A stretch of DNA of 64,000 bases, from the NCBI GenBank assembly GCA_044351265.1, contig JBILGC010000005.1, positions 8,162-72,161 of the forward strand. Direction: 5' to 3'. The notes under the pieces were generated by a model. The model was not told where the DNA came from. It saw nothing but the letters and a program-made list of their open reading frames with translations, and searched no databases. Source of the DNA: Bacteroidia bacterium (GTDB lineage Bacteria; Bacteroidota; Bacteroidia; UKL13-3). A program made the translations under genes and the position numbers. Of this stretch, positions 1-35,593 are shown one piece after another. The number at the start of each line of letters is the position of its first letter. The first letter of the stretch is position 1.

Positions 1-118
1 AACCATGTAAACCACAAGCAACTCGCTGCCCGGATATGTAGTATTTGATATACGATAAACCAAACCAACATTGTGCACTTGTGCATGCCAATATAATTCT
101 CTGCACTAATTTTACTGC

Positions 119-649
119 GTGAAAAAACTATTCATCGTTGCAATTGCCTTTGTTATGGTGCTGGCATCATGCCGCAGCAAAAAACATGCAATGCATGGTT
201 TAAGTAATAGAGATAAGGCGGAGAAAAAGACTTATTTTGAAAATAAATATGGTGTTGTATTCGACAGAGAAACCAACTACAAACTTTACATGGCCATTGA
301 TGCATGGTATGGTACCCCGCACAAATTAGGTGCATGCGAAAAAAGTGGCATTGATTGCTCTTGCTTTGTGAATAGGGTTTATAAAGAAGCCTACGGTTGC
401 GAAACTCCCCGTGACACGAAGGGTTTGATGGAAGTGATTAAACAAATTGACAGAGAAAGATTAAAAGAAGGTGATTTGGTTTTCTTTACGATGAACAAGG
501 GCAATAAGGTTGACCACGTTGGCATTTATTTAACGAATGGAAAATTTGCCCATACCTCCAGCAAGAAAGGGGTAATGGTAAGCAGTTTAGACGAACCACA
601 TTTTGAGAAAGCTTTCAAAACAGGTGGCCGAATAAAGTGTGTGGGTTAG
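119..649 (+). CDS. NlpC/P60 family cell-wall peptidase lipoprotein
   Basis: Lipoprotein-type signal (VLASC). Catalytic Cys context GIDCSCFV and downstream HVGIY His are typical of C40/NlpC-P60 peptidases. Confidence 0.8.
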   Translation: MKKLFIVAIAFVMVLASCRSKKHAMHGLSNRDKAEKKTYFENKYGVVFDRETNYKLYMAIDAWYGTPHKLGACEKSGIDCSCFVNRVYKEAYGCETPRDTKGLMEVIKQIDRERLKEGDLVFFTMNKGNKVDHVGIYLTNGKFAHTSSKKGVMVSSLDEPHFEKAFKTGGRIKCVG

Positions 650-671
650 CTTATTGGTTATTTTATTAATG

Positions 672-719
672 CGGGTTTACTATTACGAGTTTTTTATTTG
701 CAATTACGGGTTTACTATT
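672..719. repeat. Direct repeat pair (~17 bp; core CGGGTTTACTATT) spaced ~35 bp
   Basis: Seen in sequence: ..AATGCGGGTTTACTATTAC.. at 671-690 and ..ATTACGGGTTTACTATTCC.. at 704-722. Lies in a convergent intergenic region. Confidence 0.5.
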
Positions 720-864
720 CCTTGTTTGATAGTATAGGTTCATTATTGATTGGAGGTTAAAGGCTAGAGGATTAAAAGATTTAAACTTCACGCGATTCTT
801 CATTCAACATTTTGCTGTGTTTCAGTGTCTCTATGGTTTTATTGATTGGAAGGCAACAAAGTTG

Positions 865-910
865 GAAAGTTACAAGGTTAGAAAGTTACAGGGTTAGTCA
901 GAAGGTTGGG
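865..910. repeat. Tandem 16-bp repeat (GAAAGTTACARGGTTA x2 plus a degenerate third copy)
   Basis: Seen in sequence: GAAAGTTACAAGGTTA, then GAAAGTTACAGGGTTA, then GTCAGAAGGTTGGG. Confidence 0.5.
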
Positions 911-1034
911 CAGATTAATATTTTCAGTAACTCAAAATTGATCTTCGCTCGACTCTCTTCACGTTTCTATATTTCTTATTAAATGCAATTCAATAGGCAG
1001 GAATCACTAAATACCAAAAAATAAGTCTTAAGTA

Positions 1035-2198
1035 TTAGTCTTCCTGATACGCTTCTTCTGCAAAAACGGGTGCGTTGTATTGTTCTAATGCTGTGTTTTT
1101 ATTTTCTTCAAGATTCACTGCATATCTGAGTCCGGCACCTTTACCAATAACCTTCACCAAATTTTGGTCAACAAGGGCGGTAAAATCTCTTTGTATGGTT
1201 TTTCTGTTGCAATCAAACTCACTCACCAAATCTTTTGTAGAAATAAAGCCTTTATGCTGTATAATATACATGATGAGTTTTTGGCGCTTGTTTAAAATGC
1301 TTTCATCTATTTCCCTTAACCTGTAACCACGCTCAAAAACATAGTTCATAATATTTTTTTGACGCGCATTTAATTGTTCAAAATCTATTTGCTTTCTGAA
1401 ATAGGAGCGAAGCAATAATTTAAGACGGTTTAGTTGTGCTGCATACAAATCAGTGCCAAAGTCAAGTTCAGCCTGCATACTGTTTACATTTTCCTGCGGA
1501 GCATCTATGCGGTTTTCAATAAAGTAGTTTTGGTAATCATTCTTATTCAGATATAACTCATGCTCAATGCTAATCAATCCCAGCAAATCCATTCCTTTTT
1601 TTCTAAGCCAAAAGTTCTGAAGCAGTGATGCTATTTTGCTTTTTGCCTCAGAGAAAATACGAGTATTGAGTAATTTAAAATGTAAAATCCATGATTGAAT
1701 AATGGGGTGTTGCTCTTCATCCTGATTCAGATATTCAAATAGGCTCTCCAGTTCAAGCTCAGCTGTTGGACTTAGCTTTTCCGGACTGCGCAGGCTATTT
1801 ACGGAGAATAGGTTTACATCTTCACGGTTATTATATAAATCAAGTATTAGCAGTTTTTGAAGCTGATAAAGCATAGATACATGTAAAGGCTGGTCTAATT
1901 GCGAATCAAGCCAAGCCTCCGCTTTCATATATTGTTCCACTCCTCTTTCTGCTAAACCTTTCGGCCTCATTTTACCCTGAACGATATATTTTACTGTTTT
2001 GATATCAATGATGTTGTGATCAAGTGCATTGGCGTAATAGGTGCGAAGGATACGAGAGTTTTGCTGCTCTATCTGCCTGATATGATCAGGCAAATCAATG
2101 AAGTCATGTATTTTGATGAGCTCTTCATGCTGATGAAAACAATCATAGTGTTTTGCATCAATAGCTATGGCCGGCTCAAACTTATTGATTAATATCAC
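1035..2198 (-). CDS. Fic/Doc-like protein with degenerate active-site motif and C-terminal winged-HTH (DeoR-like)
   Basis: Region HPIIQSWILHFKLLNTRIFSEAKSKIASLL aligns to the Fic core (HPFxDGNGRxxR) but lacks the His and the GNGR. The C-terminus (..ISTKDLVSEFDCNRKTIQRDFTALVDQNLVKVIGKGAGLRY) looks like a wHTH. Confidence 0.5.
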   Translation of the reverse strand: MILINKFEPAIAIDAKHYDCFHQHEELIKIHDFIDLPDHIRQIEQQNSRILRTYYANALDHNIIDIKTVKYIVQGKMRPKGLAERGVEQYMKAEAWLDSQLDQPLHVSMLYQLQKLLILDLYNNREDVNLFSVNSLRSPEKLSPTAELELESLFEYLNQDEEQHPIIQSWILHFKLLNTRIFSEAKSKIASLLQNFWLRKKGMDLLGLISIEHELYLNKNDYQNYFIENRIDAPQENVNSMQAELDFGTDLYAAQLNRLKLLLRSYFRKQIDFEQLNARQKNIMNYVFERGYRLREIDESILNKRQKLIMYIIQHKGFISTKDLVSEFDCNRKTIQRDFTALVDQNLVKVIGKGAGLRYAVNLEENKNTALEQYNAPVFAEEAYQED

Positions 2199-2378
2199 TC
2201 ATCCAAAAGTACACGCATTATGCATGTTGTGCAGACTAAGTACCTCTCAAACAGTTGTGGATATTGGCATTTTAAAGATAGGTAAGGTTTAACAACTTCT
2301 TAAGATGCCCGAAAACATTAAGAAAAACGCGATTCAAAAAAATAGACAGGCCTCTAAAATAGCTGTGAATAATTGCTG

Positions 2379-3914
2379 TTATAAGGTTTCTAGCGTTTGC
2401 AGATAATGCTCTGCTTGCTTAAAGATCTCCTGCCTTTCTGCACTGGCCATTTTATTCAAGACCTGATACATCATAGAAATACGTTGATTGTTGCTTAACA
2501 GGTTTCTGTTGCGCTCATAAAAATGCCAGTATAAACTGTTAAACGGACAGGCTTTATCGCCATATTTTTTCTTCTTGTCATAATAGCAACTCTTGCAGTA
2601 ATCGCCCATCTTATCAATGTAGTTGGCAGAGGAAATATAGGGCTTACTACCTACTATTCCCCCATCGGCAAACTGACTCATGCCTCGTGTATTGGTTATT
2701 TCAACCCATTGCAGCGCGTCTATATAAATACCCAAATACCATTGGTCTACCTCATCCGGATGTATACCGGCAAGCAGAGCAAAATTACCTGTTACCATCA
2801 ATCGTTGTATATGATGTGCGTACGCGTTTTGCAAACTATTATTTACCGCCTGCTTCACACAGTTCATATTGGTTTCTCCGGTCCAGAAATAGGCAGGTAG
2901 TCGGGTTGAATGATTGAAGAAGTTAAGTGTTTCATAAGCCGGCATTTTCCACCAATAAATTCCCCTCATGTATTCGCGCCATCCGATGATTTGCCTCACA
3001 AATCCTTCTATCTGTGGTAGGCTAATGTGTTCCGTATTTTTTCTCCAAGCTTCAACTGCTGCATGAACAACTTCTGCAGGAGAGATCATTTTTGTATTAA
3101 GTGCAAACGATAAGCGTGAATGAAATAGAAAAGGTTCCTGAACAGACATGGCATCCTGATAAGTGCCAAAGTAGGGCAAAATGTGCTTAACAAAATAGTC
3201 AAGCAAGGCTAGAGACTGTTGTCGCGAAACCGGCCAAAGAAATGCTTGAGGTTGAATATCGCCTAGATACTTTGCGCCACATTTTTTTATTTCCTCTATT
3301 ATCTGAGAAACATCATTTTTTACCAAATTATAAGCAGGTGCAGTGGGTTGGCCAGACCATTTTTTTCGGTTTTCAGCATCATAGTTCCATTTACCGCCAA
3401 TGGGCTCTGTGCCATCCATCAGTATACCATATTGTTTTCTGATTTGCCTGTAAAATGTTTCCATTAGAATTTGCTTCTTGCCTTCAAACAATTCTTTTAC
3501 CTGCATGCGGGTACTCATAAAATGTTCGGTATCAAAAGAGCTGTAAGGGATGGTAAGGCTTTCGCAAATTAGCCGAAGTTGTTCATCAACACGCCATTCA
3601 TCAGGCAGCTGATATTGAAATTCCTGTACACGATATTGCTTAATTAGCTGAGATAAATTTTCCGATAGTATATGTTTATTGGAAGGATCATTGATGGTAT
3701 AATAAATTACCTGATGACCTGCTTGTTCAAGATTTTGGGCAAAGTTGCGCATGGCCGCAAAAAATCCTGTAAGCTTTTGTATGTGATGCGTTACATAATC
3801 TGTTTCCTGCCGCATCTCAAACAGGCAGTAAATATGTTCATCGTTTACTTCACCAAACCAACTGTGGTTTTGATTTAACTGGTCTCCCAGCAACAATCTG
3901 AGCTTTTTTGCCAT
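2379..3914 (-). CDS. FeS-BCP family cryptochrome/(6-4) photolyase-like protein (COG3046, PhrB/CryB-like)
   Basis: N-terminal MAKKLRLLLGDQLN..HSWF is typical of COG3046. The C-terminal Cys triad C-x2-C-x12-C (CKSCYYDKKKKYGDKAC) matches the [4Fe-4S] ligand spacing of PhrB, and an upstream Cys is also present. Confidence 0.8.
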   Translation of the reverse strand: MAKKLRLLLGDQLNQNHSWFGEVNDEHIYCLFEMRQETDYVTHHIQKLTGFFAAMRNFAQNLEQAGHQVIYYTINDPSNKHILSENLSQLIKQYRVQEFQYQLPDEWRVDEQLRLICESLTIPYSSFDTEHFMSTRMQVKELFEGKKQILMETFYRQIRKQYGILMDGTEPIGGKWNYDAENRKKWSGQPTAPAYNLVKNDVSQIIEEIKKCGAKYLGDIQPQAFLWPVSRQQSLALLDYFVKHILPYFGTYQDAMSVQEPFLFHSRLSFALNTKMISPAEVVHAAVEAWRKNTEHISLPQIEGFVRQIIGWREYMRGIYWWKMPAYETLNFFNHSTRLPAYFWTGETNMNCVKQAVNNSLQNAYAHHIQRLMVTGNFALLAGIHPDEVDQWYLGIYIDALQWVEITNTRGMSQFADGGIVGSKPYISSANYIDKMGDYCKSCYYDKKKKYGDKACPFNSLYWHFYERNRNLLSNNQRISMMYQVLNKMASAERQEIFKQAEHYLQTLETL

Positions 3915-3932
3915 TTGCTCTCTCTTTATTGT

Positions 3933-4544
3933 TTAGGGCTTGGCATAAGGCAGTTCTGCAATTTTAGATAGGCGGTAATATGTTTCCAATCCGCCTGCTC
4001 CAATGCTGCCGCTATTTTCCAGTTGCAAAATATTGGATTCGTTTACAACAGCATGCTCCAGTATAATTTCTTGCACTTTACCTATAATCAGAATGGTTCC
4101 GTTTGATTTAACAGGAATTTCTTCTTCAAATGTTAGCCCTATTTTTACAACAGATTCTTTTACATAAGGAGCTTTTATGGCTGATGTAAATTCCGGTGTG
4201 AGCCCTGTTGCTTCAAACTCACTGATGGCATAACGAGCAGAAGTTTGATGAGCCTGTCTGTAAATTCCTTCATGCACATGATTAATGGTGAAGCAACCTG
4301 TTTGTTTGAGGTATTCGTAGGTATGTCGTTCAACACTAACCGGACGCATAATAAATCCCATAAGCGGAGGATTGGCACCGATATGCACGACAGAATTGAA
4401 AATAGCCAGATTGGTAATGCCGTCCTTATTGATGGTACCTATAAGATTGGCTGCGCGGATTCCGGGCAATGAATTAATTAAATTGGTTCTGGGTTGTTTA
4501 TCCATTCCCAATACATCTGATAAGGTAAGTATGGTTCTGCTCAT
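3933..4544 (-). CDS. Flavin reductase-like FMN-binding domain protein
   Basis: Flavin_Reduct-like sequence (SRTILTLSDVLGMDKQPRTNLINSLPG..GANPPLMGFIMRPVSVERHTYEYLKQTGCFTINHV). Start moved to internal Met (MSRTIL) so it does not overlap the upstream SDR stop. Confidence 0.7.
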   Translation of the reverse strand: MSRTILTLSDVLGMDKQPRTNLINSLPGIRAANLIGTINKDGITNLAIFNSVVHIGANPPLMGFIMRPVSVERHTYEYLKQTGCFTINHVHEGIYRQAHQTSARYAISEFEATGLTPEFTSAIKAPYVKESVVKIGLTFEEEIPVKSNGTILIIGKVQEIILEHAVVNESNILQLENSGSIGAGGLETYYRLSKIAELPYAKP

Positions 4545-4551
4545 GAATATT

Positions 4552-5238
4552 TTATCTAATGGCCTGCATGCCACCATCAACTGAAATAATTTGACCTGTA
4601 ATCCAATTGGCATTTATGAGAAACAAGGCTGCATCTGCTATATCATCAGGGCTGCCAATCTTTTTCAGCGGATGTCTTTCTTCTGCAGCTTTAATTTTTG
4701 CTTCGGCATTTAAGAGTTTTTCTGCCAGAGGTGTTTGTGTAAGCGATGGGGCAATAGCATTCACCCTTATTTTAGGTGCGAACTCGGCAGCAAGGCTTCT
4801 GGTTAGGCCTTCAATGGCGCCTTTTGCTGCACTGATGCTTGCATGAAATGGCATACCTGTTTGCACGGCAACCGTACTAAACAAAGTAATGCTTGGTGAT
4901 TCTGCCTGTTGCAACAGCGATAAATAATGGCGCATAGTTTTAATGGCTCCCAGCAAATTGATATTCCAATCGTTTAAAAAATCCTCATTTTTTAATGAGC
5001 GAAATGGTTTGAGTGAAATGGTGCCGGGACAGTAAATCATGGCATCAATGGGTTTATCTATTGAAGGAAAATCCGGATTGTCTTGTGCTATATCAACTTT
5101 AAAGTGATTTATACTGCTTCCTGTGTTTAGGTTTCCGGTGTTTCTGGAAAGTGCTGAAATTTCATGTGTTATGCTCAGCTTTTGGGCAAGTGCACCACCA
5201 ATGCCACTGCTTGCTCCTACAATTAATGCATGTTTCAT
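4552..5238 (-). CDS. Short-chain dehydrogenase/reductase (SDR) family oxidoreductase
   Basis: TGxxxGxG-type NAD(P) motif ALIVGASSGIGGALAQKL and the LTRSLAAE signature. The usual YxxxK appears as ISAAK, so the catalytic Tyr may be substituted. Start taken at MKHALIV. Confidence 0.75.
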   Translation of the reverse strand: MKHALIVGASSGIGGALAQKLSITHEISALSRNTGNLNTGSSINHFKVDIAQDNPDFPSIDKPIDAMIYCPGTISLKPFRSLKNEDFLNDWNINLLGAIKTMRHYLSLLQQAESPSITLFSTVAVQTGMPFHASISAAKGAIEGLTRSLAAEFAPKIRVNAIAPSLTQTPLAEKLLNAEAKIKAAEERHPLKKIGSPDDIADAALFLINANWITGQIISVDGGMQAIR

Positions 5239-5258
5239 GTGTAAGTAACATCCTTTAT

Positions 5259-6398
5259 TTAAAAAGGTTTGCCATGTGTTTTGCCGATGAGCCACTGCGT
5301 TACGAAGGGCATAGGCTTAAGCGCTGAAATGGTTAGGTTGGTTAGCAGAGGGTTACCAAATAATCCTTGAATAAAACGACCTGCTTTAAGCCTACCAGCA
5401 AATTCTCTGTTCCATGCTTCATGGTATGCTGCTGTCAGTTCTTTTTTATTGCCATTGGGTTGTTTGTATTGTTTTACTAAGTCGGCAAGTATATGGGAAG
5501 CATGCATGGCCATGCTCATGCCGTTTCCGCATAAGGGAGTAATTAGCCCGGCTGAATCGCCTGCAAACAAAAGATTACCTGCATGGCTGCTTTTCTTTTC
5601 AAAGCTAATCTGTGAAATAACCAGTGGCTTATCATATAAAAAGCGTGCACGCTTAAAAATCAATTTCAAAAAAGGATTTTTGTATAGTACCTCTTCTTCC
5701 ATTTGATGAATATCTCCATTTCTATTTTTAAGTTGGGTTGCAGTGGTGAGGTAACACAAGCAAAACTGATTATTTTCTATTTTTGAAATACCGCAATAGC
5801 CATTTTGGAAATTATGCAATGAAATGCGGAATTCCGGCTCATCTATTTCAATATGATATTTTACGCCAATAAAGTCATTTAGCTTGCGCTGGGTAGGATG
5901 TATAAAGGAGCGATTTAGTTTTACATCCAAATTGGCGCGTTTACCCCAGGAGCCAAAAACAAGTTTTGCATCGTAAACTTCTTGTGTGGTTCTCAACTCA
6001 TGTATATGTTCTTTTTCACACACATCTGTTACCCTTGTATTGCATTTAACACTCACCCCGATTGAGAGTGCTTTTTTATATAACAGATTATCTAAAGTAA
6101 ATCTGCTGATGCCAAAACCGCCCTGATAAAGCGGCTGTGTTAAATAATTGCCTGATGGTGCCGATACCAGTAATTCATTTATGCGCGGAAGTTGCATTGC
6201 TTGAAGCGGAATGCCAAGGCGCTCTAAAAATGGCCAGCTTTCCATGCTGATGTACTCACCGCAAACTTTATGAAACGGATAGTTTTCTTTTTCAAACAAT
6301 ATGGTTTGTAGTCCTTGATGCTGCAGTTGCATGGCAAGCGTTAAACCGGCAAGTCCTCCGCCAATAATGGCAGCATCATATGTTATATGCGCACTCAT
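5259..6398 (-). CDS. FAD-dependent oxidoreductase (geranylgeranyl-reductase/FixC-like flavoprotein; possible hydroxylase)
   Basis: Dinucleotide fold YDAAIIGGGLAGLTLAMQL and a FHKVCGEYIS motif typical of the COG0644 family. The start at MSAHITY overlaps the upstream stop as ATGA. Confidence 0.75.
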   Translation of the reverse strand: MSAHITYDAAIIGGGLAGLTLAMQLQHQGLQTILFEKENYPFHKVCGEYISMESWPFLERLGIPLQAMQLPRINELLVSAPSGNYLTQPLYQGGFGISRFTLDNLLYKKALSIGVSVKCNTRVTDVCEKEHIHELRTTQEVYDAKLVFGSWGKRANLDVKLNRSFIHPTQRKLNDFIGVKYHIEIDEPEFRISLHNFQNGYCGISKIENNQFCLCYLTTATQLKNRNGDIHQMEEEVLYKNPFLKLIFKRARFLYDKPLVISQISFEKKSSHAGNLLFAGDSAGLITPLCGNGMSMAMHASHILADLVKQYKQPNGNKKELTAAYHEAWNREFAGRLKAGRFIQGLFGNPLLTNLTISALKPMPFVTQWLIGKTHGKPF

Positions 6399-7108
6399 TG
6401 ATTTGCACCTGGAATTAGCACAATCCATCTAAAAGCCCATTTCCATTTAAGAGTATAGTGAGGGATGTGAGTTGCTTTAAGAATATATTGCCAATCCTGC
6501 TTTTTAAAACCACGCAGTACCGATAATGGCGCATCGTTTTTAACAAGGTATGAATGTGAGAATAGGCGTGTGAGCCAAGCAATGCTAAAGTAAGCAAGTG
6601 GGTGGCGGTGCAGATCATTAATGATAACGGCCTGCTTTGCCATTTTAACAGACCAACTGATTAGCGCTGAGGTTTCCTCATTAGATAAGTGATGACAAAA
6701 CAATGCATTCACCACAATATCAACTTCCATGTTTTCACTTAGTAGATTTTTATAATCTTCCCTAATAAAGCTTATTTCCGGGTATCCGGTACAGGCTTGT
6801 TTTGCATAGGCAATACAATCTTGTTTTAGATCAACACCTGTTAGTTTCACATTTAGATTTTTTCTGCGTGCCCAGCTTGCAATGGCCTTTAAGGTGTCGC
6901 CACCTCCGCATCCAATATCTAGGATATGAATGGTTTTATTGGTCGGTAGAGACAATTCATTAAGTGCAGCAATGGTAGCAGCATGGCCACCCAAACGGGT
7001 GTTGATGATGTCCAGTTCAAGCAAATTTCTGTGCAGCGCATCTACCGGGATATCGAAAGCATCTAGCAATTCTTTTTGTTTGGAGCGGCTATTAAACATG
7101 TTTTTCAA
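6395..7108 (-). CDS. Class I SAM-dependent methyltransferase
   Basis: Motif I ILDIGCGGGDTL and an acidic post-I residue region. The start overlaps the PKS stop by 17 nt. Confidence 0.8.
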   Translation of the reverse strand: MKNMFNSRSKQKELLDAFDIPVDALHRNLLELDIINTRLGGHAATIAALNELSLPTNKTIHILDIGCGGGDTLKAIASWARRKNLNVKLTGVDLKQDCIAYAKQACTGYPEISFIREDYKNLLSENMEVDIVVNALFCHHLSNEETSALISWSVKMAKQAVIINDLHRHPLAYFSIAWLTRLFSHSYLVKNDAPLSVLRGFKKQDWQYILKATHIPHYTLKWKWAFRWIVLIPGANQ

Positions 7109-8180
7109 ATAAAAAACTTTCCATGGTTAAACCGGGACCGAAGGCTACGCCAAAGGCTTTTCCTGATTGATTGGATTGAAGCAATTTTTTGAGCACAAAT
7201 AAAATGGTAGCACTGCTCATATTGCCATAATTGCGCAATACTTCATAAGAGGCTTGTAACGCTTGCTTAGGCAAGTTTAGTTGTGATTGAATGACATCTA
7301 GGATTTTTCTTCCACCCGGATGTATTGCCCACAAGGTGATATCTGACAAAGATAAGCTGCCCTTAAGGCAATGATTAAATAGCGTTTCAATATGCTGCTC
7401 AATTAATGAAGGTATATATGCACTGAGCGTCATTAAAAATCCTTCTGATGAAATGTGCCAGGCCATATCTTTTTCTCCATTTGTAATGAGCTCACTGTAA
7501 AAGTCATTCAATCCAAAATATGGTGTGTTGCATGCATTCAGGTATGCATCTCCGGCAATTATGCAAGCTGCTGCACCATCAGCAAATATGGCATTGGCTG
7601 TTAGATTATCTGCTGTGGGTTGCTTTTGGAAATGTAAGGTGCACAACTCAACAGATACTATGAGAACCAGCGCATCTTTACTGGCAGTGCAAATAGCATG
7701 AGCCTGCTTAAAGGCGTGTATCATGGCATAGCACCCCATAAAGTTTACAGATGTGCGGTTAATGGTAGTAGGTAGTTTCAGTTTTTTTACCAATTCAATG
7801 TCTAAACCCGGTGCCGACATACCTGTGCATGAAACGGTAATGAGATGGGTAAATCTTTTGCTGGTATCATCAGGTAAATCATGCAAACAGTTATGAACTG
7901 CTTGCTCTGCCAATGATACCGCATTGCTTTGATAGCAAGCTAAACGGGTATCTATATCTGGTTGAAGATTGCATTTAAATAATATTTTAGACTCATAATC
8001 ACTATTAAAGTCGGGCAATACGCTATAGCGATATTCAATTCCGCTTCGCTGATACATGAGATTTAAACGCTGTAAATCTGTTTCCTCGGGGGTGTACTGC
8101 GCCTGCATAAAGGATAGTATATCAGCCTGACTATGCTTATAGGGTGGCAATGCTGTATCTATTGACCAAATGAAACTCAT
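7092..8180 (-). CDS. Type III polyketide synthase (chalcone/stilbene synthase superfamily; alkylresorcinol/alkylpyrone synthase-like)
   Basis: Catalytic triad contexts are visible: Cys in FMGCYAMIHAF, His in WAIHPGGRKILD, Asn in NYGNMSSATILFVL. C-terminal GPGLTMESFLFE. Start set at MSFIWSID, overlapping the UbiA stop. Confidence 0.85.
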   Translation of the reverse strand: MSFIWSIDTALPPYKHSQADILSFMQAQYTPEETDLQRLNLMYQRSGIEYRYSVLPDFNSDYESKILFKCNLQPDIDTRLACYQSNAVSLAEQAVHNCLHDLPDDTSKRFTHLITVSCTGMSAPGLDIELVKKLKLPTTINRTSVNFMGCYAMIHAFKQAHAICTASKDALVLIVSVELCTLHFQKQPTADNLTANAIFADGAAACIIAGDAYLNACNTPYFGLNDFYSELITNGEKDMAWHISSEGFLMTLSAYIPSLIEQHIETLFNHCLKGSLSLSDITLWAIHPGGRKILDVIQSQLNLPKQALQASYEVLRNYGNMSSATILFVLKKLLQSNQSGKAFGVAFGPGLTMESFLFEKHV

Positions 8181-9073
8181 AGAATAATATTTGATATGAT
8201 GAGAGAAAGGAAATATAAATTTAATAAACTTGACGCAAGTACATTCATTCGCATAGTATGGGTAAAATCTGCATACTTTGTTTCTTTCCACACCTTGCTA
8301 AGCCAGTAAAAAAAATATATCAGCACAGGAGCAAGCACAAACTGAAGCAGCCAGAATTTCCATAAATTGTCCTGAAACCTAGTAAAGAACATAAGCATAG
8401 CAAGCACAAAGCAAATAGCAGTGAGTAAAAAAGTGCCGCGGTAGCCAAGCAGCATGCTTATGGTATTCACCCCATCTTTCCTGTCAGCCTCATGCTGATA
8501 GATTTGTGTAAGCGGATAAACACCGGCAATAAGCAGGGAGGAAATGCAACATCCGCTTAAATCAGGTTGCATGCCACCAACAGCGTAAAAAGTTAACATA
8601 TAAATCCATGCGCCCTGAAAAACCACTACCGTTAAAAACCCGGGAATTGCATATTGTTTGAGCCTGATTCCTCTGTAACTATAAGTACGTGAAGCAAGGA
8701 TATATATTGAAACGTAAAGTGCTGCTTTTAAATCAATCAGCAAGCTCATTAAAATAGCCATTGTATCCATGAGTGCAGTGAGATGAAAAACTTTTTTATC
8801 TGCTTTAGGTGGCTTTTTTAAGCCACCAATGGGTCCTTCATCTTGATCCATATAACTGTTGTAAGCATTGCTTGCTGGATAAATAAGCAGGTGAAGAATA
8901 AAAAACAGTAGTAGTGCACGATGTAATGAAATATGTTGGATACTGCTTAATGCAAATAAGAATACGGGCAGCAAAAAAAATGAAAAAGGCAAACGAAGCA
9001 GTTGTAAATTCTTGGCTGATATCATAAAGGGGAAAATACGATTTATTCTTAATGTTTGCTTAATAAATAACAT
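8177..9073 (-). CDS. UbiA-family aromatic prenyltransferase (integral membrane)
   Basis: Polytopic hydrophobic protein. First Asp-rich motif NAYNSYMDQDEG and second motif YQHEADRKDG are present. The true start may be the internal MISAKNLQLLRLP near 9025. Confidence 0.75.
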   Translation of the reverse strand: MLFIKQTLRINRIFPFMISAKNLQLLRLPFSFFLLPVFLFALSSIQHISLHRALLLFFILHLLIYPASNAYNSYMDQDEGPIGGLKKPPKADKKVFHLTALMDTMAILMSLLIDLKAALYVSIYILASRTYSYRGIRLKQYAIPGFLTVVVFQGAWIYMLTFYAVGGMQPDLSGCCISSLLIAGVYPLTQIYQHEADRKDGVNTISMLLGYRGTFLLTAICFVLAMLMFFTRFQDNLWKFWLLQFVLAPVLIYFFYWLSKVWKETKYADFTHTMRMNVLASSLLNLYFLSLIISNIIL

Positions 9074-9088
9074 TAAGAAAAAATTAAA
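9055..9088. promoter_or_regulatory. Perfect 11-bp inverted repeat TTCTTAATGTT-N12-AACATTAAGAA in the divergent intergenic leader (candidate operator)
   Basis: Seen in sequence. Lies between the UbiA-PKS operon start and the divergent response-regulator gene. Confidence 0.4.
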
Positions 9089-9186
9089 GAAGTCTGTTTA
9101 CATTGATTATAAAGGCTTTTAGGGCATTTTGTTTGCTGTTCATTCATAATAGGTGTGCTCTTACGAATAAAGCAAATAGGATTTTA

Positions 9187-9194
9187 TAACTTTG
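9187..9194 (+). promoter_or_regulatory. Candidate Bacteroidota -7 promoter element (TAACTTTG, TAnnTTTG-type) for the response regulator gene
   Basis: Fits the TAnnTTTG consensus 22 nt upstream of the ATG. No clean -33 TTTG was seen. Confidence 0.3.
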
Positions 9195-9216
9195 AATTGA
9201 TTAATAACACGCAACT

Positions 9217-9927
9217 ATGCAAAAGGAACAACAGCCACATATACTTTTAGTTGAAGATGAATCTACATTAGGATATTTTTTAAAGGAGCATCTTAAATTG
9301 GGAGGGTTCAAAGCCAATCTTTGTGTTGATGGTGAGGAAGGTTGGGAGACTTTTAAAACCGAGAAATTTGATTTATGTATTCTAGATGTAAACATGCCCA
9401 AGAAAAACGGTTATGAGCTTGCAAAAGATATACGAAGCATTAATCCTTATGTGCCTATTGTTTTTTTAACTGCCAATTCTGCGGAAGGAGATCGCATCAA
9501 AGGGTTTGAAATTGGAGCAGATGAGTATATAGTTAAGCCTTTTAGTCCGGAAGAGCTGTTGGCCCGTATTAGAGCTATTCTCAGGCGCACGCGATTTGCT
9601 CCGCCTGTTATTAATCCAAAGGAGGAAATTAGAAAAGTAGGAAGCCTCGAGGTTGATTTTATTAATCATACCATTACCATTAAAGGAAATCAAAAACGAA
9701 TGAGCACAACAGAAGCAGATTTGTTTAAACTTTTTATTGATAATAAAAATAATTTGCTCACCCGTAACTCTATACTTATCAATATTTGGGGGCGAGATGA
9801 CTATTATACGGCACGTAATCTGGATGTATATATTAATAAACTCAGAAAAATATTAAAGGAAGATCCTTTATTGGAAATTGTGAATATTCACGGTGCAGGC
9901 TTTAAACTTGTAGAAAATACTGCTTAG
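9217..9927 (+). CDS. OmpR/PhoB-type two-component response regulator (REC + winged-helix)
   Basis: REC features ILLVEDE..DLCILDVNMPKKNGYEL..K. C-terminal trans_reg_C-like ..YINKLRKIL... Confidence 0.85.
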   Translation: MQKEQQPHILLVEDESTLGYFLKEHLKLGGFKANLCVDGEEGWETFKTEKFDLCILDVNMPKKNGYELAKDIRSINPYVPIVFLTANSAEGDRIKGFEIGADEYIVKPFSPEELLARIRAILRRTRFAPPVINPKEEIRKVGSLEVDFINHTITIKGNQKRMSTTEADLFKLFIDNKNNLLTRNSILINIWGRDDYYTARNLDVYINKLRKILKEDPLLEIVNIHGAGFKLVENTA

Positions 9928-9932
9928 TAACT

Positions 9933-11981
9933 GTGAAACGCATTCTGCTTATATTTACCCTTATTGTATTTTGTTTCCGCCTGGGAATTACCCAGGGAAT
10001 TAATACCGATAGTTTAATTCAAATCACTCAGCAGGCCCCCGATAGGCAGAAGCAGCAGGCATTACAGGTACTTGTGCAATTTTATAAGAACAATGATCCC
10101 CAAACCGCTTTGCAGTATATAATGAAACTGGTGGAGCTAAATGAACGCTTGAATGATGATATTGCATTGGCAAAGGCTTACCAAAATGCAGGAATACTCA
10201 ACTTCAGGCTTGGTAATTTTGCACGGGCAAAGGAGTTTTATCTGTTAGCCCTCGATAAGTTTGTACAACAGAAAAATACAGATGCACAAAATGAAATCAA
10301 TGGTTATCTGGCTGCCGTTTATTATGCAACTGGGAATTTACCTCTTGCTGCTGATACGTATTTAAAAGTATTGCGCTATTACGAAGAAAAGAATGATAAA
10401 GCAGCACTACTCAATATTTTAACTTCTCTAGGAAGTATTTACTCCCGACTGAACAACTTCTCAAAAGCATTGGAATACAACTTACGTGCCTTGCGTATTT
10501 ATGAGGAATCATCTGACAAATTCAGAACACTCGTAGGATACGACAATATTGGCAATATTTATTTAAGGCAAGGAAACCTGCAAAAAGCGGGTGAGTTTTT
10601 TAACAAATCGCTTTTGGTATACAGAGAGCTGAATAATAAGGCAGGTGAAGCATCTACTTTATTTCAGCTTGGAAATATAGCCGATAAACAAAACGATGTG
10701 GAGGAAGCAATTGTATACTACCAAAAAGCAATTGATGTTGCAAAGGCTATTAAATCTCAGCCTATGCAAACCACCGCAGAACTTGCACTAGCCAATAATT
10801 TATTTAAAATAAAGCTTTACCAGCAGGCCATTACCTCATATCAAAATGTAATACGTTTGGCTAAACAACTTGAAATGAAAATTGAGTTGGAGGAGGCTTA
10901 TAGAGGAATTTCATTGGCCTATGCAGCGATTAAGCAGCAACAAAAGGCAACAACATTTGGTGAATTGAGCAGGGAGTTAAAGGATTCTTTATACAACGAC
11001 AGCAATATTAAAAAGCTTGCCGATTTACAGCTGGTGTATGAAACGGAAAAAAAACAACAGCAAATAGAATTGCTTTCAAAAGAGCAGCAACTGCAGGAGC
11101 TTGAATTAAAGCGTGAGCGAGAGTCGAAGAATTTCTGGGCTTATGCTTCAGTTGTGCTTGCCATTGTTTTTATGGTACTCATTTATTTCTCTATTCAAAA
11201 TAAACGTATTGCCAATAACCTTCGTAGGCAAAAGGAAGTACTTGAGCAGAAGAATAGAGAGGTGCTGGCGCAAAAAGAACAGCTCAATCAGTTAAATAAT
11301 GTTAAGGATCGTTTCTTTTCTATTATCTCACATGATTTAAGAAATAACCTTGCCACCATGAAGTTGTATTTTGATTTAATCAGCCATCCCAATTATAAGC
11401 CTACTGATCATTCAGAAGCAACCAAGCAAATATCAGCTTCAGTTGAAAACACCATCGATTTGCTGGAGAACTTGCTTGTATGGGCTTCTGCGCAAATAAA
11501 GGGAGTGCCTATTCATATACAGAAGCTACATTTACACTCACTTATACAGGGAAATATCAATTTACTTCAAGGTAATGCCCACCAGAAAAAAATCAGTATA
11601 CAAAACAATGCAGATGAGCAGGCCAGCGCAATGGGTGATATGGATATGATTCATTTGGTTTTACGTAATTTAATTTCCAACGCAATTAAGTTTACAAACG
11701 ATGGTGGCACAATTCAAATTAGCAGTGAAGAAAGAAATGGCAAACAAATCATCTGTATTCAAGATAATGGAGTAGGTATAAGCAAAGAAAATTTATCAAA
11801 ACTATTTGATCAGCATTTGCATCCCAGCACCAAAGGAACTGGTAATGAAAAAGGAACCGGATTAGGGCTAATGCTTTGTAAAGATTTTATGATGCGTAAC
11901 CAAGGCTCTATCAGAGTGGAGAGTGAAAAAGGCAAGGGTGCGTCATTTTATATTGAGCTACCTATAGTGGGTAAATTGTAA
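9933..11981 (+). CDS. TPR-repeat sensor histidine kinase
   Basis: N-terminal signal, multiple TPR-like repeats, a single TM (FWAYASVVLAIVFMVLIYFSI), a coiled coil, H-box FSIISHDLRNNL, and an HATPase_c G-box (GTGLGLMLCKDF). Confidence 0.85.
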   Translation: MKRILLIFTLIVFCFRLGITQGINTDSLIQITQQAPDRQKQQALQVLVQFYKNNDPQTALQYIMKLVELNERLNDDIALAKAYQNAGILNFRLGNFARAKEFYLLALDKFVQQKNTDAQNEINGYLAAVYYATGNLPLAADTYLKVLRYYEEKNDKAALLNILTSLGSIYSRLNNFSKALEYNLRALRIYEESSDKFRTLVGYDNIGNIYLRQGNLQKAGEFFNKSLLVYRELNNKAGEASTLFQLGNIADKQNDVEEAIVYYQKAIDVAKAIKSQPMQTTAELALANNLFKIKLYQQAITSYQNVIRLAKQLEMKIELEEAYRGISLAYAAIKQQQKATTFGELSRELKDSLYNDSNIKKLADLQLVYETEKKQQQIELLSKEQQLQELELKRERESKNFWAYASVVLAIVFMVLIYFSIQNKRIANNLRRQKEVLEQKNREVLAQKEQLNQLNNVKDRFFSIISHDLRNNLATMKLYFDLISHPNYKPTDHSEATKQISASVENTIDLLENLLVWASAQIKGVPIHIQKLHLHSLIQGNINLLQGNAHQKKISIQNNADEQASAMGDMDMIHLVLRNLISNAIKFTNDGGTIQISSEERNGKQIICIQDNGVGISKENLSKLFDQHLHPSTKGTGNEKGTGLGLMLCKDFMMRNQGSIRVESEKGKGASFYIELPIVGKL

Positions 11982-11986
11982 AACGT

Positions 11987-12526
11987 TTATTTTTTCTTCA
12001 TAAGTGGAACATTGCTGCATGCCTCACCATACATTATGCTTTTTGCATAAGGAGCAAGTTTGTGTGTAATTTCAACATATGCACTTACAGGCACAGGTAT
12101 TTCTCCGCAACCTTTAACAATAACCCTGGCATCTTGCAATGCTTCTAAATTAATTTTATTTAGTGCATCGGTAAACAAAGCCCATTCTAATGTTTGTAAA
12201 TTTCCGAATACATAACGGTTTGCAAACGGCTCGGCAGCTACCGCAAGTAACATATAGGCCCATGTTGGTATAATGGCATCTGCACTGCAAGTGAAAGCAA
12301 TATTTTTTCCTGTATATTGGCTCCAGTTGTGTTGCTTTACGCGCTCTCTGAAATCTTTTTCTTTTAATATTGCTTCTCTGAAAAGCCAGGGCTTAATATC
12401 AAACAACAAACGCTCGCCCGGATGATAATAGGTTTCCAGATCAATGGTAATTAATCCGCTATTCGCCACACGGTTTTCTATGGGTTTTATTTCCGATTCC
12501 ATAGGTGCAAAGATACCAAAAAGCAA
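11987..12526 (-). CDS. Conserved hypothetical protein (possibly DUF2480-like)
   Basis: 179-aa ORF with no overlap. The family assignment is from memory only. Confidence 0.45.
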   Translation of the reverse strand: MLFGIFAPMESEIKPIENRVANSGLITIDLETYYHPGERLLFDIKPWLFREAILKEKDFRERVKQHNWSQYTGKNIAFTCSADAIIPTWAYMLLAVAAEPFANRYVFGNLQTLEWALFTDALNKINLEALQDARVIVKGCGEIPVPVSAYVEITHKLAPYAKSIMYGEACSNVPLMKKK

Positions 12527-12540
12527 TAAGCTAAGGCAGC

Positions 12541-14673
12541 TTACTTAACTTCCGCTTGCAAGTTCCAAAGCACAAAGCCCCAGAAATCAGCCGCATCTTC
12601 AACCAATTTGGCAGTGGGTTTGCCTGCACCATGACCGGCCTTGCTGTCAATTCTGATAAGCACCGGATTTCCATTTTTAGCTTGCTTGGTTTGTAACTCG
12701 GCAGCAAATTTAAAACTGTGGGCAGGTACCACACGGTCATCATGGTCTGCTGTCATAATCATTGTTGCCGGGTAGTTTATACCGGCTTTTACATTGTGCA
12801 GAGGGGAGTATTTAATCAGGTAATCAAATTGCTCTTTCCGCTCACAGCTTCCATACTCAACCGCCCAGCCCCAGCCAATGGTAAATTTGTGGTAGCGCAG
12901 CATATCCAACACACCTACTGCAGGAATGGCTACTTTAAATAAATCCGGTCGTTGGGTCATACAAGCACCTACGAGCAAGCCACCGTTGCTGCCCCCATTG
13001 ATTGCAAGTTTAGCTGATGAGGTATATTTTTCATGAATCAAATATTCTGCTGCAGCAATAAAATCATCAAATACATTTTGTTTTTTATCCAGCATGCCTG
13101 CTTTGTGCCAATCTTCGCCATACTCGCCTCCACCTCTTAAATTGGCAATAGCATATACACCACCTTGTTCTAAAAACATCATGCGTGAAATGCTGAAGGA
13201 AGGGGTTAGGCTTATGTTAAAACCTCCGTAACCATATAACAAAGTTGGGTTGTTACCATTAAGGGTAATACCTTTTTTATGCATAATAAACATAGGAATT
13301 TTTGTTCCATCTTTTGACGGATAAAAAATCTGTTTGGTTTCATACATCGATTCATCAAAAGCCAATTCTGTTTTTCTGAATAGTTCTGACTTCCCTGTGC
13401 TTATATCATAATGATAAATCTCACCGGGATTGGTAAACGAGGTAAACGTATAAAAGGCTTCTGTATCTTCCGCTTTGCCTGAAATGCCGCTTGCTGTGCC
13501 AATTCCGGATAATGTAATTTCGGTTTTATTTTCTCCGTTCAAATCAAATCGATACAAGCGTATGCTTGCATCTTTCAGATAGTTGGCAAATAATTGACCT
13601 CCACAGGTGGAGGCACCTTCCAGCAAATCGGCAGTTTGCGGAATAACATCTTTCCAGTTTTGAGGTTCCGGTTTTAATGGGTCTACTTCAACTAACCGGT
13701 AACGCGGTGCATCCTTATCTGTAATGGCCAGTATTTTGTCGCCTACATTATTAATTACTGAGTAATTGTTTTCAAAACCTTTAAACAATGTTCTAAACGA
13801 TTTTTCATTTTTGGTTAAATCCTGAATCAGTATTTCAGATCCGGAGGTTCCCTCGCTAACGCTAATAATCATAAAGCGCTCATCTTCTGTTATGCCGGCA
13901 TTGAAATAGCGCAACGGGTGAGCCTTATCTTCATAAACTAGCTTGTCTTCCGATTGTGGTTTCCCTATTTCATGGTAATAAATTTTCATGTACTCATTGG
14001 CATTGCTAAATTCTTTGCCTTTACCGGGCTCATCATACCTGCTATAATAAAATCCGTTTTTATACCAGGTTGCACCGCTGAATTTAACCCACTGAATCAG
14101 GTCGGTTGTTTTTTCTTTGCTTGCTACATTCATCACAAATATCTCATTCCAGTCGCTGCCACTTTTGGCAATGCCCACTGCACAATATTGGTGGTCTTTA
14201 CTAAAAGTAAAACTTGCCAAAGAAACGGTTCCGTCTTCACTTAGTTTGTTGGGATCTAAGAATATTTCAGGTTCTCCTTTTAGCCCCTGCTGACGATAAA
14301 GCACGCTTTGGTTTTGCAAACCATTATTTTTAAAGAAATAGTAATAGTTACCTTCTTTAAACGGAGCTGAATATTTTGGATAGTCCCATATTTGGGTAAG
14401 CCTTTTTTTAAGCTGATCGCGGTAAGGTATTTGTGAAAGATAGTTTTTTGTAACATCATTTTGCGCTTTAACCCAGGCTTCCACATCGGCAGCTGTATCA
14501 TTCTCTAGCCAGCGGTAGGGGTCGGCAATCGTTGTTCCGAAATAATGATCACTTACATTCTCTTTTTTGCTTTCAGGGTAAGGCTTCATGGCGATTTTTA
14601 GTTGTTCTTTTTTCCCGCATGCAATGACTAACGTCATCAGGGTAATAAAGGTTATATTCTTCATTGTATTCAT
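12541..14673 (-). CDS. Prolyl oligopeptidase (S9A family) lipoprotein
   Basis: Serine nucleophile motif GGSNGGLLVG, the beta-propeller plus peptidase architecture, and a lipoprotein signal (LVIACG). Start taken at MNTMKNIT. Confidence 0.85.
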   Translation of the reverse strand: MNTMKNITFITLMTLVIACGKKEQLKIAMKPYPESKKENVSDHYFGTTIADPYRWLENDTAADVEAWVKAQNDVTKNYLSQIPYRDQLKKRLTQIWDYPKYSAPFKEGNYYYFFKNNGLQNQSVLYRQQGLKGEPEIFLDPNKLSEDGTVSLASFTFSKDHQYCAVGIAKSGSDWNEIFVMNVASKEKTTDLIQWVKFSGATWYKNGFYYSRYDEPGKGKEFSNANEYMKIYYHEIGKPQSEDKLVYEDKAHPLRYFNAGITEDERFMIISVSEGTSGSEILIQDLTKNEKSFRTLFKGFENNYSVINNVGDKILAITDKDAPRYRLVEVDPLKPEPQNWKDVIPQTADLLEGASTCGGQLFANYLKDASIRLYRFDLNGENKTEITLSGIGTASGISGKAEDTEAFYTFTSFTNPGEIYHYDISTGKSELFRKTELAFDESMYETKQIFYPSKDGTKIPMFIMHKKGITLNGNNPTLLYGYGGFNISLTPSFSISRMMFLEQGGVYAIANLRGGGEYGEDWHKAGMLDKKQNVFDDFIAAAEYLIHEKYTSSAKLAINGGSNGGLLVGACMTQRPDLFKVAIPAVGVLDMLRYHKFTIGWGWAVEYGSCERKEQFDYLIKYSPLHNVKAGINYPATMIMTADHDDRVVPAHSFKFAAELQTKQAKNGNPVLIRIDSKAGHGAGKPTAKLVEDAADFWGFVLWNLQAEVK

Positions 14674-35274: not shown

Positions 35275-35593
35275 ATTTAGCGCGTAAAAACTGTTTTTTT
35301 GGTCAGATTGATTAAGTAAAGTAGTAAAAAAGTTTGAAGTCTGATATAATAGCTGCGTTTTAAACCTTAAAATTAAAGCATCTGAAAAATAAGGTTGATT
35401 TATTTAGAAAATCAATAACCCCTAAATGGACAAATATAACTTTCTTAAATATTTGATTTGCAGTAGTATATTATGACATATATCTTGTCTTTGCATCATC
35501 TCTTTTATTTACTTGCCATTGTTCCAAAAGTTTAATCTTTCTTAAAAGATTATCTTGTGCCTTTCTTAAGAAAATATTAAGAAGTGTAGTTTT

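Follow-up and report, generated by a model that had tools for sequence, protein, structure and literature searches.

Relation to described systems

PhrB from Agrobacterium (PDB entry 4dja) and CryB from Rhodobacter sphaeroides (3zxs) are the founding members of the FeS-BCP/CryPro proteins; both are alphaproteobacterial and belong to subgroup A. The key residues of PhrB are the catalytic His366, Leu370/Met410, the lesion-side Tyr424/Tyr430, and the electron path Trp342/Trp390/Tyr391 (PMC4619345). In subgroups A and G, the pocket for the DMRL antenna has a signature comprising a YVxH D-loop and a Glu37-Arg108 salt bridge, and CryB additionally has regulatory functions (PMC9178010). Subgroup G includes the FeS-BCP of Vibrio cholerae (7ykn/8a1h), a demonstrated (6-4) photolyase.

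The photolyase described here is encoded on a 64,000-nucleotide stretch of a Bacteroidia genome, referred to as the window. Its best match is the V. cholerae protein, which aligns over the full length (query residues 5-511). The two have in common the YVxH antenna loop, the four cysteines of the cluster, the catalytic His, and the Trp/Tyr chain; at the N-terminus, the V. cholerae protein is longer by about 20 residues. PhrB and CryB match over the whole length of the window photolyase at E values of about 1e-126, and the PhrB residues tested by mutagenesis (W342, W390, Y391, H366, L370, Y424, and Y430) are all kept, whereas the window protein comes from Bacteroidota.

Gene clusters of the SrsABC type, for alkylresorcinols and alkylquinones, combine a type III polyketide synthase (PKS) with a methyltransferase and a flavoprotein. 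The same domain set is found in the four genes upstream in the window, a likeness that concerns the PKS module and not the photolyase. Actinomycete clusters of a UbiA-type protein, a methyltransferase, and a type III PKS, such as the loseolamycin locus (PMC7587189), also share their domain set with this four-gene core.

In Pseudomonas, the light-inducible PplR/PmlR regions hold phrB, a short-chain dehydrogenase/reductase (SDR), an FAD oxidoreductase, ufaM, cryB, and folE (PMC9758184). Bacteroidota islands resemble them in that photolyase-family genes accompany SDRs, flavoproteins, and GTP cyclohydrolase I, but they belong to another phylum, no LitR/CarH regulator was seen in them, and the Pseudomonas clusters, as listed, include no split-barrel flavin reductase.

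The window is likely to carry a typical FeS (6-4) photolyase that closes a module of three genes; this module adjoins an independent PKS module and is probably transcribed together with it.

Gene order in the window

The genes and sites considered are the following.

1035..2198, minus strand: DeoR-like anchor gene, 387 aa, with a C-terminal DeoR/HTH_11 domain (Pfam HTH_DeoR, 1e-6)
2379..3914, minus strand: FeS-BCP/CryPro (6-4) photolyase, 511 aa, ATG start, identified by Pfam and PDB matches
3915..3932, minus strand: spacer of 18 nt separating the stop of the flavin reductase from the photolyase start, ACAATAAAGAGAGAGCAA
3933..4544, minus strand: split-barrel flavin reductase-like protein, 203 aa (PF01613, Pfam 5.2e-16), ATG at 4544
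4552..5238, minus strand: SDR, 228 aa (Pfam adh_short_C2, 7.8e-37), ATG at 5238
5259..6398, minus strand: FAD-dependent oxidoreductase (FADox) of the geranylgeranyl-reductase superfamily (Pfam FAD_binding_3; TIGR02032, 9e-27)
6395..7108, minus strand: SAM-dependent methyltransferase (MT; Pfam Methyltransf_25/31/11), overlapping both neighbours (-8 and -4 nt)
7092..8180, minus strand: type III PKS, 362 aa (Pfam Chal_sti_synt_N/C)
8177..9025, minus strand: UbiA-family prenyltransferase (Pfam UbiA, 2.6e-17), probable start ATG at 9025
9049..9087, no strand: candidate operator in the divergent promoter region, an imperfect palindrome, TTAATTTTTTCTTAA-N9-TTAAGCAAACATTAA
9217-9927, plus strand: OmpR-type response regulator (RR), divergent (Pfam Response_reg and Trans_reg_C)
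9933-11981, plus strand: TPR histidine kinase (HK), forming a divergent two-component system with the response regulator

Seven genes, from UbiA to the photolyase, lie on one strand with successive gaps of -4, -8, -4, +20, +7, and +18 nt. The core genes overlap, beginning with the 4 nt shared by the UbiA gene and the PKS start, whereas the SDR, flavin reductase, and photolyase (the trio) are joined by positive gaps. The sources of PKS homologues call them alkylresorcinol/alkylpyrone synthase. In the PDB, the flavin reductase is best matched by 3fge (9.8e-56), a putative enzyme of the same kind that is itself uncharacterised. The stop codon of the flavin reductase gene (TAA, 3933-3935) directly precedes the spacer, which confirms the distance and shared strand given in the earlier note. 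Downstream of the photolyase, the DeoR-like gene follows after 180 nt. In GC and GC3, the trio is no different from its neighbours in the window and so bears no compositional sign of recent transfer.

The photolyase protein

At E 1.9e-163 to the solved V. cholerae FeS-BCP, the family assignment is far beyond chance, and it agrees with the earlier description of a 511-aa FeS-BCP protein with a COG3046-type N-terminus: a profile search placed Pfam PF04244 (DPRP) at residues 6-224 (E 1.7e-76). Five solved FeS-BCPs align full-length, at about residues 1-510, with E values from 1e-163 to 1e-127; the PDB matches include 7ykn (1.9e-163), 9hnk (4e-140), 4dja (9e-127), and 3zxs (1e-126). Neither the photolyase nor the flavin reductase matched an NCBIfam model. 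A pseudogene or a mis-called start was considered for the photolyase and rejected, since alignments with homologues begin at residue 1-5 and run to the end of an intact ORF.

The cysteine triad C440-x2-C443-x12-C456 can be read directly in DYCKSCYYDKKKKYGDKACPF, and the upstream cysteine noted before is C352, within NMNCVKQ. C352, C440, C443, and C456 align with the [4Fe-4S] ligands C350, C438, C441, and C454 of PhrB and are invariant in 16 relatives. Every PhrB residue that mutagenesis showed to be important is likewise kept at an offset of +2 and invariant in the 16 relatives; the repair and electron-path residues are H368, L372, M412, Y426, Y432, W344, W392, and Y393, and Y462 is found alongside Y426/Y432. 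The DMRL signature is complete, with Y40-V41-T42-H43, E37, R108, L9, G10, D11, E33, K47, and M55.

The predicted cofactors of the protein are FAD, a [4Fe-4S] cluster ligated by C352/C440/C443/C456, and 6,7-dimethyl-8-ribityllumazine as the antenna. If it works as PhrB does, the (6-4) photoproduct would receive an electron from light-excited FADH-, with H368 as the proton donor. The gene is best read as that of an ordinary FeS (6-4) DNA-repair photolyase with the corresponding predicted activity; it needs no new explanation, and a routine FeS-BCP annotation therefore suffices.

Distribution of the polyketide core and the photolyase

By operon-like spacing and shared strand, the photolyase would pass as a member of the PKS cluster in the window. 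We compared two sets of loci, one of 80 genome loci centred on the PKS and one of 80 metagenome loci centred on the photolyase. The core of UbiA, PKS, MT, and FADox is complete in 64 of the 80 PKS-centred loci, and genes downstream were counted in the 54 complete four-gene clusters with at least 4 kb of downstream sequence. Among these, the SDR occurs in 3, the flavin reductase in 2, and the photolyase in 1. Reciprocally, none of the 80 photolyase-centred loci has a PKS, UbiA, MT, or FADox gene beside the photolyase.

Relatives that share the site bounded by the RR/HK pair and the DeoR-like gene show a nested series of architectures.

Core only: L003, L005
Core and SDR: L010
Core, SDR, and flavin reductase: L006, L169
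All seven genes: the window, L170/L171, L012, L168
Degenerate UbiA-like gene, SDR, flavin reductase, and photolyase, without PKS, MT, and FADox: L164-L167

The RR/HK pair is syntenic in L003, L005, L006, L010, L012, and L164-L171, and L163 also keeps the seven-gene order. L005 has the most similar flanks (DeoR-like protein 86%, HK 74%), yet it lacks the trio, whereas the photolyases of L164-L167, which persist without PKS, MT, and FADox, are 69-70% identical to that of the window. The junction between flavin reductase and photolyase measures 14 nt in L163, L170, and L171 and 12 nt in L164-L167, but about 317-320 nt in L012 and L168, where the spacer of ~320 nt is conserved and contains conserved palindromes, which suggests an independent promoter there.

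The earlier note had taken the photolyase to function as part of the PKS operon, either in a light- or UV-responsive module with the phenolic lipid or with the cluster product as its antenna or cofactor. The shared strand and the gaps of at most 20 nt in the window are consistent with this, as are the order kept in L170/L171, L163, L012, and L168 and the common upstream control motif (see below). The photolyase is, however, absent from 53 of the 54 homologous clusters, the syntenic close relatives L003, L005, L006, L010, and L169 included, which is the distribution that the note itself had named as contrary to its proposal. The reciprocal absence of PKS genes, the trio of L164-L167, and the long junction of L012/L168 point the same way. 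For the cluster product as antenna, the full DMRL-binding signature of subgroups A and G makes such a role unlikely, since it predicts the ordinary lumazine antenna. We regard membership in the PKS pathway as very unlikely, and the comparison does not support the photolyase as a conserved part of it.

Two independent modules instead appear to be juxtaposed, the UbiA-PKS-MT-FADox core, of which FADox is the last conserved gene, and then the SDR, the flavin reductase, and, as the predicted last gene of its module, the FeS-BCP photolyase. In this arrangement, the trio lies directly downstream of a four-gene module of the SrsABC-like phenolic-lipid/alkylquinone type, and only in this bacterial lineage does it close a polyketide-lipid gene cluster. 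The boundary of the widespread Bacteroidota type III PKS cluster should accordingly be called at the FAD oxidoreductase, with the trio as a separate dispensable module, a distinction relevant to genome mining and heterologous expression. Three or more distinguishable lineages (window/L170, L012/L168, and L163) retain the seven-gene arrangement; instead of chance adjacency, selection for co-expression with the PKS genes may account for this.

The site also bears on whether the protein is mainly a cryptochrome-like light sensor that regulates adjacent genes through the DeoR/Fic-like HTH protein or the two-component system. CryB, matched by the window protein at 1e-126, is regulatory (PMC9178010), and the photolyase is followed by the DeoR-like gene in every photolyase-bearing architecture, including L083, which has no other genes of the locus; the DeoR-like homologue in L164 gives a weak Fic match. 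Yet the DeoR-like gene adjoins every architecture, those of L003, L005, L006, L010, and L169 without a photolyase included, and being equally present there it is a chromosomal anchor, not a partner. With the repair-critical H368, Y426, Y432, D179, and D254 intact and invariant, and with a demonstrated (6-4) photolyase as the best match, a primarily sensory function is highly improbable.

Recurrence of the SDR and flavin reductase beside photolyases

The earlier note had counted the SDR and the flavin reductase among the PKS-pathway genes; comparative data suggest that both belong with the photolyase instead. In 12-13 of the 80 metagenome loci, a homologue of the flavin reductase (38-52% identity) precedes the FeS-BCP gene on its strand, and SDR homologues (44-50% identity) are present in 15-16. 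Thirty-six of these loci are well flanked, with at least 2.5 kb on both sides, and hold a CPD photolyase/Cry-DASH in 20, a DUF2805 protein in 14, an SDR in 12 (33%), and a flavin reductase in 9 (25%). In all nine, the flavin reductase is upstream of the photolyase and on the same strand, often directly adjacent, with gaps of 3-226 nt. The recurrence of the two genes beside FeS-BCP is independent of the PKS, as L164-L167 and L173 also illustrate. The meaning that the note had attached to the adjacency of flavin reductase and photolyase is thus borne out, because the pairing recurs in other Bacteroidota.

SDR and flavin reductase form a conserved pair in L172 and L173, and in L173 the pair adjoins an FeS-BCP gene. 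L006, L169, and L172 have the two genes but no photolyase, and a flavin reductase homologue stands alone in L174. Most FeS-BCP loci lack both genes, so an obligatory three-gene linkage is not seen; their presence at a quarter to a third of photolyase loci, together with the solitary gene of L174, marks the trio as recurrent, not obligatory.

Other residents of such islands in Bacteroidota are CPD photolyase, DUF2805, TspO, FolE, and DUF2071 genes. In the other 50 kb of the window, no CPD photolyase, DUF2805, FolE, TspO, DUF2071, ABC1, or TetR gene was found. A literature search yielded no paper on DUF2805 together with photolyase and, for a flavobacterial photolyase island with TspO/FolE, solely a Rhodobacter review.

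Any role of the SDR and the flavin reductase is one that we infer. The three proteins might form one biochemical unit, in which the SDR and the NAD(P)H-dependent flavin reductase would together maintain the FAD or FeS cluster of the photolyase in the reduced state, or supply or recycle flavin or lumazine, and activation would be partly freed from photoreduction. The constant orientation and short gaps in the nine loci, the junctions of 12-18 nt in the window, L163, L164-L167, and L170, and the pair beside FeS-BCP in L173 argue for such a unit; we nevertheless think it unlikely, given that most FeS-BCP loci lack both genes, that the pair survives without a photolyase in three loci, that our literature search found no paper linking a flavin reductase to a 6-4 photolyase, and that photoreduction of PhrB and its relatives proceeds with no partner (PMC4619345; PMC9178010). 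Quite unlikely, too, is the more specific proposal that 3fge-family flavin reductases and SDRs are dedicated FeS-BCP accessories, and that in this lineage fusion of the trio to a two-component-controlled phenolic-lipid/quinone operon has produced a single photo-oxidative-stress operon. As accessories, the two enzymes could provide an NAD(P)H-driven 'dark' system that reduces FAD or [4Fe-4S], or could service the lumazine antenna. The recurrent pairing of flavin reductase and photolyase is the only lead worth following at this locus: a 3fge-homologous flavin reductase and an SDR directly upstream of FeS-BCP genes offer a lead on photolyase reduction in vivo, and equally on the purpose of the FeS cluster.

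Transcription signals and control region

No terminator-like hairpin was found within or near the 18-nt gap, and the single sigma-70-like match nearby (3989-3961) comes from a scan at chance level (27 found, 27 expected), consistent with the earlier observation that the gap has no visible terminator or promoter. The scan for sigma-70 promoters and intrinsic terminators spanned 900-9600; its counts equalled the expectation from shuffled sequence, and the consensus is unsuited to Bacteroidota. The Bacteroidetes-type -7 box TAnnTTTG is missing from the minus strand at 3915-5600, a stretch reaching 1.7 kb upstream from the photolyase. Its absence carries little weight because the window shows no enrichment of the box (72 found versus 90 expected). 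Positions 1-12000 gave no Rfam match at E<=0.1, and thus no riboswitch or sRNA at the junctions.

The half-site TTAATnTTTTCTTAA of the intergenic region that contains the candidate operator is kept in the same region across all architectures, including L164 and L166, which lack the PKS. Both modules stand behind one conserved control region, divergent from the two-component system, and since this region is shared, the seven-gene string is probably co-transcribed in the window. An internal promoter may lie within the FADox, SDR, or flavin reductase gene. Co-expression would be a by-product of juxtaposition, not evidence for a common biochemical pathway; a joint response to light or oxidative stress is a possible use of it. 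Near the DeoR-like gene, TAnnTTTG boxes are present at 2204-2211 and 2177-2184.

Identity of the photolyase

The photolyase ORF (2379–3914, minus strand) encodes 511 amino acids and is separated by an 18-nt spacer (3915–3932, ACAATAAAGAGAGAGCAA) from the end of the upstream flavin reductase ORF at 3933. Its N-terminus matches Pfam PF04244 (DPRP) at 1.7e-76, and its CKSCYYDKKKKYGDKAC stretch comprises C440-x2-C443-x12-C456, with a further cysteine, C352, upstream; the features described in an earlier note all lie at the coordinates it gave. A phmmer search of all PDB chains with the photolyase as query returned FeS-BCP/CryPro proteins only, each aligned over its full length; the top match is the Vibrio cholerae enzyme.

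PDB matches of the photolyase
7ykn/8a1h, annotated "6-4 photolyase (FeS-BCP, CryPro)", E 1.9e-163
9hnk, cryptochrome/photolyase family protein, E 4e-140
4dja, Agrobacterium PhrB, E 9e-127
3zxs, Rhodobacter CryB, E 1e-126

The C-terminal halves of PhrB and the window photolyase align without gaps at a numbering offset of +2, and therefore all PhrB residues whose importance was established by mutagenesis (PMC4619345) are conserved in the window protein. The electron-transfer residues W342/W390/Y391 of PhrB correspond to W344/W392/Y393, the catalytic H366 and its supports L370/M410 to H368/L372/M412, the lesion-side tyrosines Y424/Y430/Y460 to Y426/Y432/Y462, and the four cluster ligands to C352/C440/C443/C456; all are invariant across an alignment with 15 relatives (57–87% identity). 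VcFeS-BCP has been assigned to subgroup G, and the DMRL-binding subgroups A and G share an antenna-pocket signature consisting of a YVxH "D loop", a Glu37–Arg108 salt bridge and Leu8/Gly9/Asp10/Glu33/Lys47/Met55 (PMC9178010). The window photolyase carries Y40-V41-T42-H43, E37, R108, L9, G10, D11, E33, K47 and M55. By these residues and the DMRL signature the protein is a standard FeS-BCP (6-4) photolyase, with a predicted ordinary lumazine antenna; the signature argues against the earlier note's suggestion of the polyketide product as antenna. The identity proposed in that note is thus confirmed, and the gene is a further member of an already known family; its activity, FeS content and cofactors are inferred.

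Gene order in the window

The photolyase lies at the end of a run of seven genes on one strand, between a divergent two-component pair and a DeoR-like gene.

9217–11981, plus strand, response regulator and TPR histidine kinase (RR/HK), divergent from the UbiA end
8177–9025, minus strand, UbiA prenyltransferase
7092–8180, minus strand, type III polyketide synthase (PKS)
6395–7108, minus strand, methyltransferase (MT)
5259–6398, minus strand, FAD oxidoreductase (FADox)
4552–5238, minus strand, SDR
3933–4544, minus strand, split-barrel flavin reductase
2379–3914, minus strand, photolyase
1035–2198, minus strand, DeoR-type HTH protein, 180 nt after the photolyase

The four core genes, UbiA to FADox, overlap (−4, −8, −4 nt), whereas the SDR, flavin reductase and photolyase (the trio) are joined through short positive gaps (+20, +7, +18), a contrast that hints at two units. 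The ORF list extends several cluster genes N-terminally into the preceding gene (4544–4613, 5238–5295, 6398–6428, 8180–8291, 9025–9073); homologue alignment favours the shorter starts at 4544, 5238, 6398, 8180 and 9025. The DeoR-like protein and its homologues at all related loci have 384–430 residues and a C-terminal DeoR/HTH_11 domain, with only a weak Fic/DOC match in the N-terminal region (E 0.005 in the L164 homologue). TAnnTTTG boxes are found at 2204–2211 and 2177–2184, in the 180-nt gap upstream of this gene.

Comparisons starting from the PKS and from the photolyase

From the PKS aligned to 19 homologues we arrived at 80 loci, on contigs from one genome per species, against which all window proteins were compared by tblastn. 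The UbiA-PKS-MT-FADox core was present in 64 of the 80. Among the 54 cores whose contig continues for 4 kb or more past FADox, three had the SDR, two the flavin reductase and one the photolyase, and these exceptions belong to a single lineage with the window's flanks (RR/HK upstream, DeoR-like downstream). The photolyase is thus missing from otherwise conserved clusters, the very outcome that the earlier note had named as refuting its reading, and membership of the PKS pathway is not supported.

Conversely, aligning the photolyase with 15 homologues yielded 80 metagenome loci (51–67% identity), none of which contained homologues of PKS, UbiA, MT or FADox. When neighbouring ORFs were clustered and representatives annotated with Pfam, a recurrent "photolyase island" emerged, with CPD photolyase/Cry-DASH, DUF2805, SDR, flavin reductase, TspO, GTP cyclohydrolase I, DUF2071, ABC1 kinase and a TetR regulator.

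Neighbours of FeS-BCP at the 36 loci whose two flanks each reach 2.5 kb or more
CPD photolyase, 20/36
DUF2805, 14/36
Homologue of the window SDR (44–50% identity), 12/36
Homologue of the window flavin reductase (38–52% identity), 9/36

In this set, flavin reductase homologues always lie upstream of the photolyase on the same strand, often directly adjoining it. Three more distant homologues were looked up directly: at L172, a DUF6992-SDR-flavin reductase triad (5532–7630) has DUF2805 and TspO nearby; at L173, the triad (5706–7633) adjoins a convergent FeS-BCP gene and DUF2805; at L174, the flavin reductase is an isolated copy. Given the island's recurrence and these look-ups, SDR and flavin reductase are, judging from gene neighbourhoods, frequent but non-obligatory companions of photolyase genes, not of PKS clusters. 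The triad's conservation in the more distant Bacteroidota of L172 and L173 means that beyond the window's lineage the pair may work with a third partner of its own.

Variation at the syntenic site

Close-homologue look-ups and genome loci revealed a nested series of architectures between RR/HK and the DeoR-like gene.

Architectures at the site (L-numbers, comparison loci)
Core only: L005, L003
Core and SDR: L010
Core, SDR and flavin reductase: L006 (Bacteroidetes bacterium UKL13-3), L169
All seven genes: window, L170/L171, L012, L168
Flavin reductase tail, photolyase and DeoR-like visible on a 2.4-kb fragment: L163
Degenerate UbiA-like gene and trio, without PKS/MT/FADox: L164–L167
Photolyase and DeoR-like only: L083

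The trio of L164–L167 is 69–71% identical to the window's, and their UbiA-like gene scores 22.7 bits, below the Pfam UbiA threshold of 34.2. In the PKS-less operon this gene comes first (L164, 7746–8603; L166, 7759–8616). Its product, a membrane protein of 285 residues, shares just 32–33% identity with the window's UbiA and is either a remnant in decay or another paralogue. L005, which has no trio gene, has the flanks most similar to the window's (DeoR-like 86%, HK 74%, RR 78%). Across 1035–11981 its flanks are thus 74–86% identical and its four core proteins just 52–59%, reflecting either much faster evolution of the core or cassette exchange. At L003 the trio's slot is taken by an unrelated 331-residue secreted protein (12972–13967) with an apparent T9SS-type C-terminal domain; the stretch between FADox and the DeoR-like gene is therefore a variable insertion site.

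The flavin reductase–photolyase junction measures 12–18 nt in the window, L163, L164–L167 and L170, and about 317–320 nt in L012 (14223–14539) and L168 (about 9594–9912). These two long spacers are 80% identical overall and about 90% over the last 120 nt, carry short inverted repeats (TTCAGA..TCTGAA, TTGAAT..ATTCAA), and may represent a dedicated photolyase promoter or operator.

A probable juxtaposition of two modules

The best reading is that two modules are juxtaposed. The first would be a widespread phenolic-lipid/alkylquinone cluster of the SrsABC kind, assigned at domain level; the second, made up of SDR, flavin reductase and FeS-BCP, would be dispensable and come from the pool of Bacteroidota photolyase-island genes. 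A UbiA-MT-type III PKS locus has been described (PMC7587189), and Pseudomonas has comparable clusters, inducible by light, containing photolyase, SDR, flavoproteins and FolE (PMC9758184). The closest solved relative of the flavin reductase is 3fge, an uncharacterised structural-genomics protein; no paper in the library searched connects a protein of this kind with a (6-4) photolyase, and a functional link between flavin reductase and photolyase is a possibility of modest interest.

Control region

Promoter-type motif scans gave counts at chance level, and an Rfam scan of the locus gave no matches. Between the divergent RR and UbiA genes a half-site, TTAATnTTTTCTTAA, is conserved; in the window it forms an imperfect palindrome at 9049–9087, directly upstream of the probable UbiA start. 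With up to 2 mismatches allowed, the whole window has 5 matches against 3.9 expected, no more than chance, so it is the conserved position that makes the case. Since the half-site is kept in every architecture, the PKS-less one included, the genes at the site, whichever are present, probably owe their expression to the same controlled promoter, which makes co-transcription of the seven window genes plausible. A second exact copy lies at 35566–35580 on the minus strand, between the divergent ORFs 34159–35274 (minus) and 35622–40424 (plus).
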